64,000 nucleotides of DNA, taken from the NCBI GenBank assembly GCA_963703575.1, contig CAVPEU010000015.1:19762-83761 (forward strand), read 5' to 3'. This DNA is from an uncultured Chloroflexia bacterium. GTDB lineage: Bacteria > Chloroflexota > Limnocylindria > Limnocylindrales > CSP1-4. Every line of letters starts with the position of its first letter. Within the stretch, counting starts at the first letter, position 1. The position numbers and the translations under genes are program-made. The notes under the pieces are model-generated. The model made no database searches. It saw nothing but the letters and a program-made list of their open reading frames with translations, and was not told where the DNA came from. This document shows positions 1 to 12,349 of the stretch, piece by piece.

Positions 1-446
1 GGGACGAGGACCAGCTCCCAGAACACGTAGAACAGGAACAGGTCCAGGGCGACGAACACGCCCGTCATGCCGACCTCGAGGACGAGGAAGGAGATCATGT
101 ACTCCTTGACCCGGTTCTGGATCGGCCGGAACGAGGCGAGGATGCTGATCCAGGTCAGCGTCGTGGTGAGCACGACCATCGCCATCGACAGTCCGTCCAC
201 GCCGACCTTGTACTGGATCCCGAACAGCGGGATCCAGGGGGCCTGGTCGACGAACTCGAAGCCCGGCCGGCCGGGCGTGAAGCCGATGAGCAGGATCAGC
301 GAGACCGCCCACGCCGCGAGCGCGAAGCCGAGCGCGGTATAGCGGATGAGGTCCGTCCGCTTGCCCGGCAGGAACCCGACGACGATCGCGCCCAGCAACG
401 GCAGGAACGTGATCAGCGAGACGATCGGGAAGTCGGACACGTTCAT
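1..446 (-). CDS. nuoM: NADH-quinone oxidoreductase subunit M, N-terminal part; gene continues past the window edge
   Basis: Absent from the ORF track because it runs off the window. My minus-strand translation from the ATG at 446-444 gives MNVSDFPIVSLITFLPLLGAIVVGF...DLFLFYVFWELVLV, a polytopic antiporter-like subunit. Its start overlaps the nuoL stop by 1 nt. Confidence 0.85.
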   Translation of the reverse strand, partial: MNVSDFPIVSLITFLPLLGAIVVGFLPGKRTDLIRYTALGFALAAWAVSLILLIGFTPGRPGFEFVDQAPWIPLFGIQYKVGVDGLSMAMVVLTTTLTWISILASFRPIQNRVKEYMISFLVLEVGMTGVFVALDLFLFYVFWELVLV

Positions 447-2494
447 CACCGGCTCACGATCACGAGGAAGGAGCCGGCCATGACGATCAGCCCGATCGCG
501 ATGCCCAGCGCGTAGTTCTGGACGTAGCCGGTCTGGATCCGCCGCAGCCCGCCGCCCGCCCCGCGGGTGAGCGCGCCGACGCCGTTGACGGTGCCGTCCA
601 CGATCGTGCGGTCGAACCACCACAGGGACGCGGCGACGCGGCCGCCGATCCGGACGAACAGCAGGTCGTTGAGCTCGTCGAACCACCACTTGTTGAGCGA
701 GGCGCGGTACAGGAACCGCGTGGCGCCGTTGGCGGCGGCGATCCGGTCCACGGTCGGCTGGCGACCGCGCGCCCGGAAGGCGCCGAACAGCCAGATCCCG
801 GCGACCAGGCCCACGGCCGCGGCGGCCACGCTGGCCAGGATCAGGATCCCGTCGATGCCGAACAGCGCGAACGCCTGGGGCGTCCCGTGGAGCAGCTGCT
901 CGGACTCCGCGAACACGGGCTCCAGCCAGCCGGCGAGGAGGCCGGTGCCCGAGGACAGCGGCGGGCCGCCCCAGGTGAGGGCGATGCCCAGCAGGACGGA
1001 CGGAATCGCCAGCAGCACCAGCGGCAGCGTCATCGTCCACGCCGACTCGTGGATGGCGGGCTCCACGTGCGGGTCCACCCGGGACTCGCCGTAGAACGTC
1101 TTCGCCATCAGGCGCCACATGTAGAACGCGGTCATCACGGCGACCAGGACGCCGATCGCCCAGACCCAGGTGAAGCCGAACTTGAACGCGTCGCCCAGGA
1201 TCTCGTCCTTGGAGAAGAAGCCGGCGAACGGCGGGATGCCGGCGATCGCGATCGCGCCCGCGAACATCGTCCAGTGGGTGATCGGGATCTTCCGCCACAG
1301 GGCGCCCATCCGGTTCATGTCCTGTTCGTCGTGCACGGCGTGGATCACCGACCCCGAGCCGAGGAACAGCAGGCCCTTGAAGAAGCCGTGGGTCATGAGG
1401 TGGAAGATCGCGGGCACGAACGCCCCCACCCCCAGCGCGGCGAACATGTAGCCCAGCTGACTCAGCGTGGAGTACGCCAGCACGCGCTTGATGTCGGTCT
1501 GGGTGAACGCGATCGAGGCGGCGAGGATGGCGGTGAAGATGCCGATCGCGGCGACCACCACCATCGCGTCCTGCGCGTGGGCGAACAGCGGATTGGCGCG
1601 CGCGACGAGGTACACGCCCGCGTTGACCATCGTCGCCGCGTGGATGAGGGCGGACACCGGGGTCGGGCCCTCCATCGCGTCCGGAAGCCAGACGTGGAGC
1701 GGGAACTGGGCGCTCTTGCCCATCGCGCCCGCGAACACGAGCAGCGCCACGATCGAGAGCGGCACGCTGAGCTGGGCGGCGGGCGTCTCGACCAGCTTCG
1801 CCAGGGAGTCCTGGATGTTCATGGTCCCGGTGTTGACCCAGATGGCCATGATCCCGAGCGCGAACCCGACGTCGCCCACGCGGTTGACGATGAATGCCTT
1901 CTTGGCCGCCAGCGCCGCCGAGCGTCTCTGGTACCAGAACCCGATCAGCGAGTAGCTCGACAGGCCGACCAGCTCCCAGCCCGCGAACAGCAGCAGCCAG
2001 TTGTTCGCGAGCACCAGCAGGAGCATCGAGAACATGAACAGGTTGAGGTAGGCGAAGAACCGCCACGTGCCGGGGTCGTGGGCCATGTACCCGACCGAGT
2101 ACAGGTGCACGAGCATGCCGATCGTCGTGACCACGATCAGCAGGGCCGCGGTGAGCGCGTCCACGCGGAACCCGAGGTCCACGGACAGGTCACCGGCCGG
2201 GATCCAGGTCCACAGCTTGACGTCCAGCCCGGTCTCGCCGAACGGCTCCTGGTGCTGGAGCACCGCCGCCACGACGACCATGGCGACCACCCAGGTGGCG
2301 ACGACGACCGCCAGCGGCACCGCGGCCGCCACGTTCCGCCCGAAGGTCATCTGCAGCCGGCGCCCGAACAGCGCACTGAACGCGAAGCCCAGGATCGGCA
2401 GCAGGACGATCAGCGGGATCAGGGTCCCGTAGATGCCGGCGTCTGCGACGGCGCCCTCGACGGCCGGGAAGATGAGGCCCGCGGGGAGATGCAT
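446..2494 (-). CDS. nuoL: NADH-quinone oxidoreductase subunit L
   Basis: 682-aa polytopic ORF with antiporter-like motifs (WELVGLSSYSLIGFWY, GKSAQFPLHVWLPDAMEGPTPVSALIHAATMV). Position after nuoK fits. Confidence 0.95.
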   Translation of the reverse strand: MHLPAGLIFPAVEGAVADAGIYGTLIPLIVLLPILGFAFSALFGRRLQMTFGRNVAAAVPLAVVVATWVVAMVVVAAVLQHQEPFGETGLDVKLWTWIPAGDLSVDLGFRVDALTAALLIVVTTIGMLVHLYSVGYMAHDPGTWRFFAYLNLFMFSMLLLVLANNWLLLFAGWELVGLSSYSLIGFWYQRRSAALAAKKAFIVNRVGDVGFALGIMAIWVNTGTMNIQDSLAKLVETPAAQLSVPLSIVALLVFAGAMGKSAQFPLHVWLPDAMEGPTPVSALIHAATMVNAGVYLVARANPLFAHAQDAMVVVAAIGIFTAILAASIAFTQTDIKRVLAYSTLSQLGYMFAALGVGAFVPAIFHLMTHGFFKGLLFLGSGSVIHAVHDEQDMNRMGALWRKIPITHWTMFAGAIAIAGIPPFAGFFSKDEILGDAFKFGFTWVWAIGVLVAVMTAFYMWRLMAKTFYGESRVDPHVEPAIHESAWTMTLPLVLLAIPSVLLGIALTWGGPPLSSGTGLLAGWLEPVFAESEQLLHGTPQAFALFGIDGILILASVAAAAVGLVAGIWLFGAFRARGRQPTVDRIAAANGATRFLYRASLNKWWFDELNDLLFVRIGGRVAASLWWFDRTIVDGTVNGVGALTRGAGGGLRRIQTGYVQNYALGIAIGLIVMAGSFLVIVSR

Positions 2495-2509
2495 CGTCGT
2501 CCCGCTGCC

Positions 2510-2842
2510 CTATTGCCGCATCGCGTCGTACTCGTCGACGAGCGGCGTCCTGCGGTTGCGGAAGATCGCGATCACGATCGCGAGCCCGACGGTCGCCTCG
2601 GCGGCGGCGGCCGCCATCACGATCAGGACGATCACCGACGCGGTGGTTTTGAGCGAGGGGCTGAACGCGCCGAACGCGATGATCGCGAGGTTGACGGCGT
2701 TGAGCATCAGCTCGATCGACATCAGCATGCTGATCGCGTTCCGCCGGGCCAGGAACCCGAACGCGCCGATCGCGAACAGCAGGCCGGCCAGGACGAGGTA
2801 CGCGTCCAGGGACTGGGAGATCCGGTCGAGCATCGAGAGCAT
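2510..2842 (-). CDS. nuoK: NADH-quinone oxidoreductase subunit K
   Basis: Last 110 aa of the 2510..6346 ORF (MLSMLDRISQSLDAYLVLAGLLFAIGAFGF...). Three TM helices typical of NuoK. ATG at 2842-2840 overlaps the nuoJ stop by 1 nt. Confidence 0.9.
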   Translation of the reverse strand: MLSMLDRISQSLDAYLVLAGLLFAIGAFGFLARRNAISMLMSIELMLNAVNLAIIAFGAFSPSLKTTASVIVLIVMAAAAAEATVGLAIVIAIFRNRRTPLVDEYDAMRQ

Positions 2843-11205: not shown

Positions 11206-11207
11206 GC

Positions 11208-11963
11208 CTAGACGTCCTCCGGCACGGTGGGGCCGATCGGGCGCTCGTGCCACTGGCCGCGCCGCTCCTTGACCAGCTGGCCCAGCTTCATCATCCCGTA
11301 GATCAGGCCCTCCGGGCGGGGTGGGCAGCCCGGCACGTAGACATCGACCGGCAGGACTCGGTCGATGCCCTCGATGGTGGAGTAGCTGCGCTTGTAGCGG
11401 CCGCCGGAGCACGTGCAATCGCCCATTGCCAGGGCCCATTTCGGCTCCGGCATCTCCTCCCACAGGCGGACCAGCGGGCCGGCCATCTTCGTGGTCAGGG
11501 TGCCGGCGACGATCAGGACGTCCGCCTGGCGGGGCGAGGCGCGGAACGGGAACATGCCCCAGCGGTCCATGTCGTTCCTGGACGTTGCGGCGGACATCAT
11601 CTCGATCGCGCAGCAGGCGAGCCCGGACAGCAGCGGCCACAGGCTGTTCATCCGGATCAGGTCCAGGACGACGTCCGCCCGGGTCGGGATCACCTCGAGG
11701 GCGCCCCAACGGGCGTTGTCCCTGACGACCAGCTCGGAGCCTTCCAGGTCGCGCAGGTGCGTGTGCTCGGTCGGCAGGCCGCCGCCGTACGCCTCGGGGC
11801 GCGTGGACGCCCACAGCGTGTTGGGCACGACGATCGGCCGGGTCAGGTCCTGCGGGCCCGCCGCGGCCAGGGACGTGGGACGCTCGCCGTCCCGGCCGGA
11901 TGCCTCGGGGCCGTCGCCCGGCCCGGGACCCGGGATCGCGTCCGGCCCGGGACCGGGGGTCAT
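11208..11963 (-). CDS. nuoB: NADH-quinone oxidoreductase subunit B, with a Pro/Gly-rich N-terminal extension
   Basis: NuoB core motifs [36 protein letters not shown] (N2 cluster cysteines). ATG at 11963 makes an ATGA overlap with nuoA; an alternative GTG lies at 11990. Confidence 0.9.
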
Positions 11964-12349
11964 CGCCACGTGAGCACTCCCTTGCGCCACGCGTAGGCGA
12001 GGCCGATGAGCAGCACCGACACGAAGATCAGCATGCTCACGAAGCCGCCCAGGAGCACGTCGCGGAACACGAGCGCCCAGAGGTAGATGAACACCACCTC
12101 GATGTCGAAGGACACGAACAGGAGGGCGTAGATGTAGAACGAGATGCCGAACCGGGCGTGGGTGTCGCCGTAGGTGTCGATCCCCGACTCGTACGGGTAG
12201 CCCTTGTGGCGATCACCGCGGGTGCGGTGCGAGAGCAGCCACGCGAGCCCGATCGTCAGGAAGACGAACGAGACGCCGGCGATGGCGAACCCGACGACGT
12301 ACCAGATCCCGGTCACTTGGTCCTCGGCATCGAGCGTGGCCGGCCACAT
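11960..12349 (-). CDS. nuoA: NADH-quinone oxidoreductase subunit A
   Basis: Internal ATG at 12349 ([11 protein letters not shown]...). Three TM helices and the NuoA motif [37 protein letters not shown]. Confidence 0.85.

Follow-up and report, generated by a model that had tools for sequence, protein, structure and literature searches.

To our knowledge, complex I is regarded as a strictly NADH-specific enzyme, its 11-subunit relatives as ferredoxin- or F420-dependent, and the NuoI subunit that joins the input module to cluster N2 as invariably a single chain. The nuo operon described here is located in a stretch of 64,000 nucleotides (the window) on contig CAVPEU010000015.1 (assembly GCA_963703575.1) from an uncultured Chloroflexia bacterium (Limnocylindria; Limnocylindrales; CSP1-4). 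In this operon, nuoI itself is split, with an electron-input module inserted inside it and carried by two proteins that are called I' and F' below. All readings given here are drawn from sequence, and statements about the window refer to these 64 kb.

The closest relatives of the module with a solved structure are soluble. StnABC and NfnABC (PDB 8OH5, 9N5U and 9BOV) are bifurcating NADH- and ferredoxin-dependent NADP+ transhydrogenases that are made from the same three blocks: a NuoE-like part, a NuoF-like part and the N-terminal part of NuoG fused to GltD. The minimal bifurcation site of such enzymes is a B1–flavin mononucleotide (FMN)–C1 “flavobicluster”, in which C1 stands for the [2Fe-2S] cluster that the NuoE-like subunit carries, and ferredoxin binds to the C-terminal domains of BfuB and BfuC (PMC11829005, PMC12018979). 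In the non-bifurcating homologues that have been characterised, clusters B2–B5 are missing (PMC9304861).

Membrane-bound combinations have also been proposed. “Nuo-Bfu” complexes were predicted in Geobacter, Deferribacteres, Planctomycetes and Nitrospirae (Schut et al. 2022, PMC9304861). Like the window, they have a complex I core and a Bfu-family input module in the middle of the nuo cluster. However, in these clusters BfuABC replaces nuoEFG, the Bfu clusters are kept, there is no GltD and NuoI is intact, whereas the module in the window is of the Nfn type with GltD, is located inside nuoI and no longer has the Bfu clusters. The Nuo-Bfu survey reports no GltD-containing nuo modules and no Chloroflexota or Actinobacteria examples of that kind, and does not mention NuoI (PMC9304861). 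The Mbx-like complexes of Thermotoga and some proteobacteria resemble the window in that a complex-I-like membrane module carries, where NuoI would be, a NAD(P)H flavoprotein of the GltD type; there, this GltD-like protein is reported to substitute for NuoI, in a hydrogenase-derived complex that reduces NAD(P)+ (Degli Esposti 2015, PMC4758237). In the window, by contrast, NuoI is kept but split, the core is of the Nuo type and NuoE/F/G-derived domains are present.

The 11-subunit relatives of complex I (cyanobacterial and chloroplast NDH-1, archaeal Fpo and Nuo11 of anaerobes) share with the window the order A-B-C-D-H-I-J-K-L-M-N, the lack of EFG between D and H, and the use of a lineage-specific input module. 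They have an intact NuoI/NdhI/FpoI and take electrons from ferredoxin or F420 via unrelated subunits, unlike the window operon, which encodes NuoE/F/G homologues, nucleotide-binding flavin sites and a split NuoI. With canonical 14-subunit complex I (Escherichia coli, Thermus, Mycobacterium), the window shares NuoA, B, C, D, H, J, K, L and M (and N in relatives), all of which score as Nuo, and equivalents of FMN, N3, N1b, N4, N5, N6a, N6b and N2 can all be assigned to motifs in the window. It differs in having no nuoEFG between nuoD and nuoH, only the helical domain of NuoE and hence no N1a, only the N-terminal iron–sulfur (FeS) domains of NuoG with GltD inserted, a NuoI distributed over two proteins, and an N3 with one Cys fewer. 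An earlier note on this DNA had allowed that the arrangement might already be a characterised complex I subtype. Apart from Nuo-Bfu, Stn/Nfn and the Mbx-like GltD protein, nothing on a split NuoI, on a GltD/Nfn module in complex I or on respiration in Limnocylindria is described in the literature searched, which included a 2025 hidden Markov model (HMM) survey of complex I variants and genome papers on Limnocylindria (Ellin6529), although this coverage was incomplete and an earlier description is possible.

Positions 1–12349 of the window hold a compact minus-strand operon with the order nuoA-B-C-D-H-I'-F'-J-K-L-M, established by analysis of open reading frames (ORFs) and start codons. Its junctions range from a gap of 15 nt at most down to an overlap of 4 nt. 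This order and its tight junctions, already read in the earlier note, are borne out by ORFs, Pfam and NCBIfam. The two unusual genes and their parts are as follows:

7392..8054, minus strand: I' gene, 220 aa (ORF)
7830..8054, minus strand: I' residues 1–75, N-terminal half of NuoI (8qby_I residues 17–81; TIGR01971 positions 1–65)
7485..7829, minus strand: I' residues 76–190, a conserved linker (76–116) and a NuoE/StnA/NfnC N-terminal helical domain (117–190) (PF01257; PDB 9bov_C, 9n5u_C, 8oh5_A)
3388..7392, minus strand: F' gene, 1334 aa (ORF), with a 1-nt TGATG overlap with I'
6052..7392, minus strand: F' residues 1–447, NuoF/BfuB-like flavoprotein core with FMN/NAD(H) site and N3/B1 cluster (PF01512, PF10589; PDB scores)
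5653..5892, minus strand: F' residues 501–580, NuoG/HoxU-type [2Fe-2S] domain, N1b/A1 equivalent (PF13510, E 5.8e-19; aligned with StnC and NfnA)
4348..5625, minus strand: F' residues 590–1015, GltD/NfnB-like domain (PF14691, PF07992; NF009454, 551 bits)
3763..4155, minus strand: F' residues 1080–1210, CxxCxCx5C motif (N5/A4-like) and NuoG/[FeFe]-hydrogenase-type 2x[4Fe-4S] domain (N4-like) (PF22117 Fer4_Nqo3; PDB)
3388..3762, minus strand: F' residues 1211–1334, C-terminal half of NuoI and low-complexity tail (8qby_I residues 93–146; TIGR01971 positions 71–116)

The first 75 residues of I' comprise the N-terminus with which NuoI docks to NuoH and NuoD, and a single CxxCxxCxxxCP motif (C56, C59, C62, C66); residues 8–74 match residues 17–81 of the NuoI/TYKY chain 8qby_I. 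The second NuoI motif, CILCGICVDACP, is found together with FELSHTSREE at the other end of the module, near the end of F', where residues 1214–1267 match 8qby_I residues 93–146 (E 3e-12). Both CxxCxxCxxxCP motifs (N6a/N6b) and the NuoI-specific flanks are thus all present, but across two polypeptides. Against the 121-position NuoI profile TIGR01971, the I' piece covers positions 1–65 (49.8 bits) and the F' tail positions 71–116 (44.5 bits), and NuoI is the best NCBIfam family for the tail. When the two pieces are artificially concatenated, they match positions 1–116 as a single stretch with 91 bits (E 3e-26). In a MAFFT alignment, the concatenated halves are colinear with seven canonical NuoI sequences at 31–38% identity; all eight cluster Cys and two Pro residues are invariant, and the break is located in the inter-motif loop, which is length-variable among canonical NuoI. 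A canonical NuoI used as a tblastn query against the whole window matches I' and F' only, and no other NuoI is found there.

Because the two NuoI pieces are complementary, the module is placed inside nuoI. The earlier note had the fusion genes wedged between nuoI and nuoJ, which does not hold: there is no complete nuoI before them, and their outer ends are its two halves. The halves are predicted to reassemble as one fold. An AlphaFold2 model of the concatenation, made with the eight-sequence alignment, has a predicted local distance difference test (pLDDT) score of 62.9, with 78–88 in the ferredoxin core, and the best 50 Foldseek matches in the PDB are all NuoI/TYKY/NdhI-type subunits, with E down to 2.5e-9 and a TM-score of ~0.45. 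This structural support is weak and partly circular, since the alignment contained canonical NuoI and model confidence is moderate; from the single sequence of the concatenation, AlphaFold2 gave a pLDDT of 37 and an unusable model.

Two other readings of these regions were tried and rejected. One takes I' and F' as a soluble Nfn-like enzyme whose genes merely happen to lie among the nuo genes; this would leave the operon without any NuoI, and both halves are conserved with all their cluster ligands. The other is the Pfam assignment of the last two Cys motifs of F' (residues 1192–1238) to a Fer4_7 dicluster ferredoxin. Of these two, the first forms a pair with the CIDCGRCANVC that precedes it, as in HydA, StnC and NuoG, while the last motif and its flanks are specific to NuoI. 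Beyond the NuoI half, F' continues as a tail of low conservation (3388–3580; mean 0.69), which closes with a Gly/Asn/His low-complexity stretch (...ANGNGNGNGHGTG...GNGSGHAHDH).

Behind its NuoI half, I' carries a truncated NuoE. Residues 117–187 match only the helical N-domain of NuoE-type proteins (NuoE, StnA, NfnC and HydC), and only positions 1–63 of the 145 in PF01257 (2Fe-2S_thioredx) are covered. The thioredoxin-like domain and its [2Fe-2S] cysteines are absent from I' according to Pfam, and the PDB matches reach the N-terminal part only. When a related, complete NuoI-N::NuoE fusion (L083) was used as a tblastn query, its 2Fe-2S domain (residues 161–253) had no match anywhere in the window.

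The NuoF-like core of F' matches over residues 24–434 and is followed by a linker. It is closer to BfuB-type proteins (9bov_B 359 bits, HydB 352, NfnB 347, StnB 341) than to complex I NuoF (221–260 bits), but it aligns with residues ~113–540 of HydB, StnB and NfnB only. The N-terminal 2Fe-2S domain and the C-terminal 2x[4Fe-4S] domain of BfuB are missing from this part of F' by Pfam, PDB alignment and tblastn, and when the 636-aa BfuB of L083 was used as a tblastn query, only its residues 164–565 were matched in the window. A “CPAGVC” in the NuoF-like part is probably a relic of the Zn/B5 region of Bfu-type proteins.

The rest of F' is the NuoG-like and GltD-like part. Over their whole length, residues 501–1236 can be aligned with StnC of Sporomusa ovata (8oh5_C residues 3–701, E 2e-139), with NfnA (9n5u_A) and with 9bov_A (E 2e-160) at 42–46% identity, and the FeS, flavin adenine dinucleotide (FAD) and NADPH motifs all coincide. 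It stops at the very point from which these proteins run on as a formate-dehydrogenase-like domain, and the C-terminal half of NuoI is found there instead. The GltD-type domain, which also matches GltD itself in the PDB search, has motifs for two [4Fe-4S] clusters, and its FAD and NADPH sites read GSGPAG and GGGFTSMD ... YRRD, respectively, with “VYRRD” as in NADPH-specific enzymes. Downstream of it are the CxxCxCx5C motif at residues 1081–1092 and the dicluster domain at 1149–1202. The whole region from 1080 to 1210 matches HydA 140–228, StnC 610–701 and 9bov_A 610–700, and its motifs are nearly invariant. F' scores 86 bits against the NuoG profile TIGR01973, whose cutoff is 470; a full-length NuoG with its molybdopterin-oxidoreductase-like C-terminal domain is not encoded; of NuoG, F' retains no more than the N-terminal FeS domains, into which GltD is inserted.

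By its domains, the module is built from NuoE-, NuoF- and NuoG-homologous parts of the Bfu/Stn/Nfn type with a GltD insertion, and its alignments indicate descent from a soluble Bfu-family transhydrogenase (Nfn-Bfu/Stn). The earlier note saw here a private input module encoded by two fusion genes. It is indeed a dedicated electron-input module, although not one foreign to NuoEFG. F' has the features that mark an Nfn-type BfuA, namely the 2Fe-2S, the GltD-like FAD/NADPH sites and the 4Fe-4S clusters. However, the C1 cluster of BfuC and clusters B2–B5 of BfuB have no counterpart in I' or F' by Pfam, PDB and tblastn. Neither in I' and F' nor elsewhere in the 64 kb is there a C1 [2Fe-2S] domain, an N-terminal 2Fe-2S domain of BfuB or a C-terminal dicluster domain; as tblastn queries against the window, the full NuoI-N::NuoE fusion and the full BfuB find matches in I' and F' only. 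The same lost domains, together with the formate-dehydrogenase-like domain and a B1/N3 cluster that has three Cys, set the module apart from StnABC and NfnABC, to whose A subunit it is otherwise 42–46% identical over ~730 residues and whose BfuB-type subunits its NuoF-like part resembles, by score, more than complex I NuoF. Fused to the halves of NuoI inside a nuo operon, it would be membrane-bound and quinone-linked and therefore unlike those soluble enzymes.

The same gene order is found in the related contigs L001 and L002. A check of relatives for the I'–F' insertion, as the earlier note had proposed, thus finds it widely: the I' fusion turned up in at least 514 genomes when one representative per species was scanned, and the database relatives of this fusion number in the thousands. 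The best 80 of these at least 514 genomes are nearly all labelled as Chloroflexota metagenome-assembled genomes (MAGs; “Candidatus Limnocylindrales” or “uncultured Chloroflexia”) with 69–88% identity, and one is labelled “Candidatus Sulfomarinibacteraceae”. The scan used an alignment of close relatives, so that chiefly Limnocylindria were recovered; more distant lineages were reached via 50%-identity cluster representatives and contigs, and distant NuoI-N::NuoE fusions were found among these representatives. The split NuoI is thereby present in three divergent lineages that range from 59% to 72% GC:

L083 and L085 (one member labelled Thermoleophilia; L083 GC 67%): NuoI-N::NuoE with full NuoE and four-Cys 2Fe-2S
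L083 and L085, NuoF/BfuB-like protein of 636–643 aa: in L083 with N-terminal 2Fe-2S, canonical CNGDEGDPGAFMD, four-Cys N3 and C-terminal dicluster domain
L083 and L085, NfnA-like protein of 824–825 aa: in L083 ending in the C-terminal half of NuoI
L087 (third lineage, GC 59%): NuoE cluster kept; NfnA-like protein ending in the C-terminal half of NuoI
L087, NuoF: plain, 468 aa, “NAYGADP”, N3 variant CGRCIPGR and an extra Cys in SLCGLC
Window (Limnocylindria, GC ~72%): NuoE helical domain only; NuoF core only, with three-Cys N3; NfnA-like part ending in the C-terminal half of NuoI

Since the module is full in L083 and L085 and intermediate in L087, the window is seen as the reduced end of a series that starts with a complete Nfn-Bfu module in complex I. 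Relatives of the L083 type would count as a new form, “Nuo-Nfn-Bfu”. L083 also has pyruvate:ferredoxin oxidoreductase genes (POR_N, TPP_enzyme_C and POR gamma; its positions 1–1732) a few kb upstream of the nuo operon, which fits a ferredoxin-linked metabolism in that lineage.

In the window, the NuoF-like and NfnA-like parts are joined in F'. They are separate genes (~444 and ~885 aa) in 81 of 82 related loci, L019 being the only other locus in which they are in frame. The separate genes usually share a TGATG overlap, and the second protein begins at the equivalent of M448 (ATG at 6051). Immediately ahead of this ATG (~6050–6060), the window carries one base that its closest relatives, L006 and L038, do not have; through it the stop is lost and the frames are joined, reading “...AAHRDIAEMADL...”. 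The 1334-aa protein may be a genuine recent fusion or the product of an indel error; the functional reading is the same for one protein or two. Out-of-frame translations are found among the representatives of the I' family (P0258, P0286, P0289, P0308, P0344), and genes are broken in the L002 operon; such frameshift errors seem to be frequent where MAGs of this high-GC lineage have been assembled from long reads.

The complex is probably a variant of complex I with an input module built into NuoI, which acts as a proton-pumping, non-bifurcating NAD(P)H:quinone oxidoreductase. The two NuoI halves would rejoin on NuoB, NuoD and NuoH and thereby tether the module at both ends. This double covalent tether and the grip of the NuoE helical domain on the NuoF-like protein would between them take over the docking that the large domain of NuoG, missing here, otherwise provides. 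FAD at the GltD site would take electrons from NADPH and hand them to the two GltD [4Fe-4S] clusters; the N4/N5-like clusters, N6a, N6b and N2 would carry them on to quinone, and quinone reduction would drive proton pumping by NuoL, NuoM and NuoN. NADH would probably join the same chain through FMN, the modified N3 and the 2Fe-2S cluster. This path is modelled on the published Nfn wire (FAD-A7-A6-A3-A2-A1-B1-FMN) and on the geometry of complex I. The enzyme is expected to be non-bifurcating because C1 and the ferredoxin-binding domain are missing.

The NuoF-like, GltD and FeS motifs were surveyed in 72–81 related Limnocylindria loci, the number depending on the motif. The GltD motifs are invariant or nearly so across 74 loci, and the [2Fe-2S] motif of F' is identical in 68 of 77. 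The GltD and FeS motifs have 1–15 variants in 72–77 loci, with mean consensus frequencies of 0.89–0.96 for GltD, 0.91–0.99 for the FeS domains and 0.88–0.90 for the NuoI halves. The GltD motifs vary far less than the FMN motifs, and NADPH/FAD entry is accordingly the most strongly conserved catalytic site.

The NuoF-like domain provides the points that count against a full NAD(P)H enzyme. Its core has a mean consensus frequency of 0.785, below the values for the GltD and FeS domains. The canonical “NADEGDPG” is replaced by “NGYGADPA”, of which “NGYGADP” is conserved, so that the acidic residues of NADE are lost; NNVET has become [N/H/Q]NVQT and varies among species; and the Gly-loop at the FMN has 46 variants in 81 loci, some of them degenerate (L021, L035, L036, L040). 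The N3/B1 motif (window ~6328–6345; F' residues 350–356) is CGK[T/S]IPCR in 77 of 77 Limnocylindria loci, with Thr in 42 and Ser in 35, so that the second Cys is always a hydroxyl residue, the other three Cys are conserved, and every member has only three Cys ligands. Loss of the middle Cys from a CxxCxxC motif is the classical signature of a [3Fe-4S] cluster, and N3 could be of this type or, equally, a [4Fe-4S] cluster with an O-ligand from Ser/Thr. At the GltD site, specificity for NADPH is predicted from just the YRR motif and homology to NADPH-specific enzymes. The altered NADE, Gly-loop and NNVET sequences and the low conservation of the domain make NADH oxidation at the FMN site uncertain. 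The FMN site is best described as conserved yet modified, tolerating more change than the rest, and the near-invariance of the 2Fe-2S cluster on the path to FMN argues that this branch is still in use.

These observations bear directly on the rival explanations. If the FAD at the GltD site were the only physiological entry, the enzyme would be specific to NADPH and the NuoF-like domain a structural relic that keeps the module together by way of the NuoE helical domain and no longer oxidises NADH. The degenerate Gly-loops, the missing acidic residues, the altered NNVET and the N3 that is one Cys short would all fit this, as would the near-invariance of the GltD motifs next to flavin motifs that are the least conserved in the module. 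However, a mean consensus frequency of 0.785 still reflects clear purifying selection, GAYMLGEET is conserved along with the three Cys and the strict hydroxyl residue of N3 and the 2Fe-2S toward FMN, and an aerobic heterotroph would presumably need a route for NADH into its respiratory chain. An NADPH-only enzyme is therefore considered rather unlikely, though it is the most serious competitor to the NAD(P)H:quinone oxidoreductase. It is much less probable that the complex works mainly as a transhydrogenase, passing electrons from NADPH to NAD+ via FAD, FeS and FMN, or runs in reverse from quinol to NADP+ at the expense of the proton-motive force, with quinone reduction as a secondary activity. 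Both nucleotide sites are kept, and the wire FAD-A7-A6-A3-A2-A1-B1-FMN does move electrons from NADPH to NAD+ in Stn and Nfn, but an ungated connection between NADPH and NADH would collapse the NADPH pool, the full pumping arm (NuoH, J, K, L and M, with N in relatives) and the quinone-site residues are conserved, and there is no sequence sign of a lithotrophic need for reverse flow.

A Bfu-type bifurcating or confurcating enzyme that couples NADH, NADPH, ferredoxin and quinone, as proposed for “Nuo-Bfu”, would agree with the homology of the module to StnABC and NfnABC, with L083 and L085, which retain every Bfu hallmark in the same operon context, and with the prediction of Nuo-Bfu for Geobacter and others (PMC9304861). 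However, the C1 [2Fe-2S], B2 and the B3/B4 ferredoxin-binding domains are absent from the window and from all examined Limnocylindria loci, and these are precisely the published bifurcation site and the low-potential branch, so that this activity is very improbable for the window. Finally, the locus might be an artefact or a decaying operon, through misassembly, frameshifts or a pseudogenised nuoI. The NuoF::NfnA fusion does hang on a single inserted base, and there are frameshifts in some related long-read MAG contigs (L002) and out-of-frame database entries. For the split NuoI, this explanation is refuted by the identical split and domain order in at least 514 species genomes and three divergent lineages; with all cluster ligands conserved and TGATG junctions that suggest translational coupling between genes, it is scarcely credible for the operon as a whole.

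The modules themselves are known; what is new, judging by the comparisons above, is their combination by splitting NuoI and the reduced, non-bifurcating, NADPH-capable form. A wider reading is offered tentatively, and we consider it possible rather than probable: the split-NuoI family could be an unrecognised class of complex I that wires NADPH, and in the L083 type also ferredoxin, into a pumping quinone reductase. The members with a full Bfu module would then be membrane-bound bifurcating or confurcating enzymes that integrate NADH, NADPH, ferredoxin and quinone, and the Limnocylindria form would be the first proton-pumping NADPH:quinone oxidoreductase. Under this reading, the [3Fe-4S]-type or hydroxyl-ligated N3 of the Limnocylindria may retune or gate the NADH site, and one of the most abundant classes of soil Chloroflexota may have no other complex I.

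If correct, the split NuoI would represent a new mode of attachment, in which a transhydrogenase-derived module sits in the loop between the cluster motifs of NuoI and a ferredoxin fold is shared by two proteins. It would also mean a likely direct entry of NADPH into a proton-pumping respiratory enzyme, which would change models of redox balance and energy yield for the Limnocylindria (Ellin6529), described in the literature as an abundant Chloroflexota group of soil and freshwater. The series from the full Bfu module (L083 type) through the intermediate (L087) to the reduced form would inform how bifurcating soluble enzymes and N-modules of complex I interconvert, and would offer concrete targets for testing the flavobicluster model of bifurcation. 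In pipeline annotations, I' appears as “subunit E”, “ferredoxin” or “hypothetical protein”, and “FAD-dependent oxidoreductase” is the name given to the large protein; surveys that rely on HMMs probably count such operons as complex I without NuoI, NuoE and NuoG.

The remaining genes of the operon encode the core of complex I:

11960..12349, minus strand: nuoA, 129 aa (ORF and start codon; PF00507 at the same position in relatives)
11208..11963, minus strand: nuoB, 251 aa (PF01058, E 1.8e-25; NF005012, 211.6 bits, over cutoff; 4-nt overlap with nuoA)
10657..11205, minus strand: nuoC, 182 aa (PF00329, E 2.7e-39)
9419..10654, minus strand: nuoD, 411 aa (PF00346, E 6.5e-84; NF004739, 414 bits against a cutoff of 360)
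8059..9411, minus strand: nuoH, 450 aa (PF00146, E 2e-105; NF004741, 319 bits against a cutoff of 305)
2842..3378, minus strand: nuoJ, 178 aa (ORF; PF00499 at the same position in L001)
2510..2842, minus strand: nuoK, 110 aa (ORF; PF00420 at the same position in L001; 1-nt overlap with nuoJ)
446..2494, minus strand: nuoL, 682 aa (ORF; PF00662 and PF00361 at the same position in L001)
1..449, minus strand: nuoM, N-terminal ~148 aa, start at 446/449, running past the window edge (translation)

The NuoA–D, NuoH and NuoJ–N homologues of the Q and P modules are thereby accounted for, by Pfam and NCBIfam for B, C, D and H, by ORFs for A, J, K, L and M, and in relatives for N. In L001 and L002, nuoL is followed by two more PF00361 genes, the complete nuoM and then nuoN; nuoN, which lies outside the window edge, is present in L001, L002 and L083. 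The spacing of 7 nt between nuoD and nuoH (9412–9418) and the absence of the canonical nuoEFG block from it were given exactly in the earlier note, and neither ORFs nor Pfam or NCBIfam place nuoE, nuoF or nuoG genes between nuoD and nuoH.

NuoB keeps the Cys motifs that we take to bind cluster N2, and NuoD keeps HPSTHGVLR and LEY motifs, presumably the equivalents of the quinone-site residues His38 and Tyr87 of Thermus Nqo4. For both NuoD and NuoH, Nuo profiles outscore the Ndh and Fpo profiles of NCBIfam. The PDB scores of NuoD are nearly equal for Thermus Nqo4 (299 bits), the mitochondrial 49-kDa subunit (303) and chloroplast NdhH (295), too close to discriminate between 11- and 14-subunit clades. 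NuoB has a Pro/Gly-rich N-terminal extension of ~85 aa, and 378 residues of NuoH span the 298 positions of the PF00146 profile, owing to an N-terminal extension and an internal insertion of ~80 aa. The extension and insertion of NuoH and the extension of NuoB are also found in L001 (455 and 249 aa) but not in the L083 lineage (375 and 184 aa).

Directly upstream of nuoA is a gene for a PF02636 (Methyltransf_28) protein (12519–13883, minus strand; E 2.8e-46), which also neighbours the nuo operon in L001 and L002. We take this family to include NDUFAF7/MidA, an arginine methyltransferase acting on the 49-kDa/NuoD subunit during assembly of mitochondrial complex I. The arginine of the HGVLR motif is kept in NuoD, and together with the position of the PF02636 gene beside the operon, this suggests that NuoD may be methylated in this bacterial complex as well.

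The GC content of the window is ~72%, and Pfam scans of 30 further genes found housekeeping functions only. After a gene with an NYN domain (44597–45913), the GC content becomes very high, reaching as much as 79% (within 44597–48500), and this stretch contains imperfect tandem repeats that recur every 93 and 123 nt (46176–46505) as well as several short repeats; a GC3-based gene filter called no confident genes at 45.9–48.5 kb. A cluster of protein quality control genes (20093–27526, minus strand) encodes ClpB (20093–22849), DnaJ (22888–24024), Lon (24044–26971) and Hsp20 (27017–27526).

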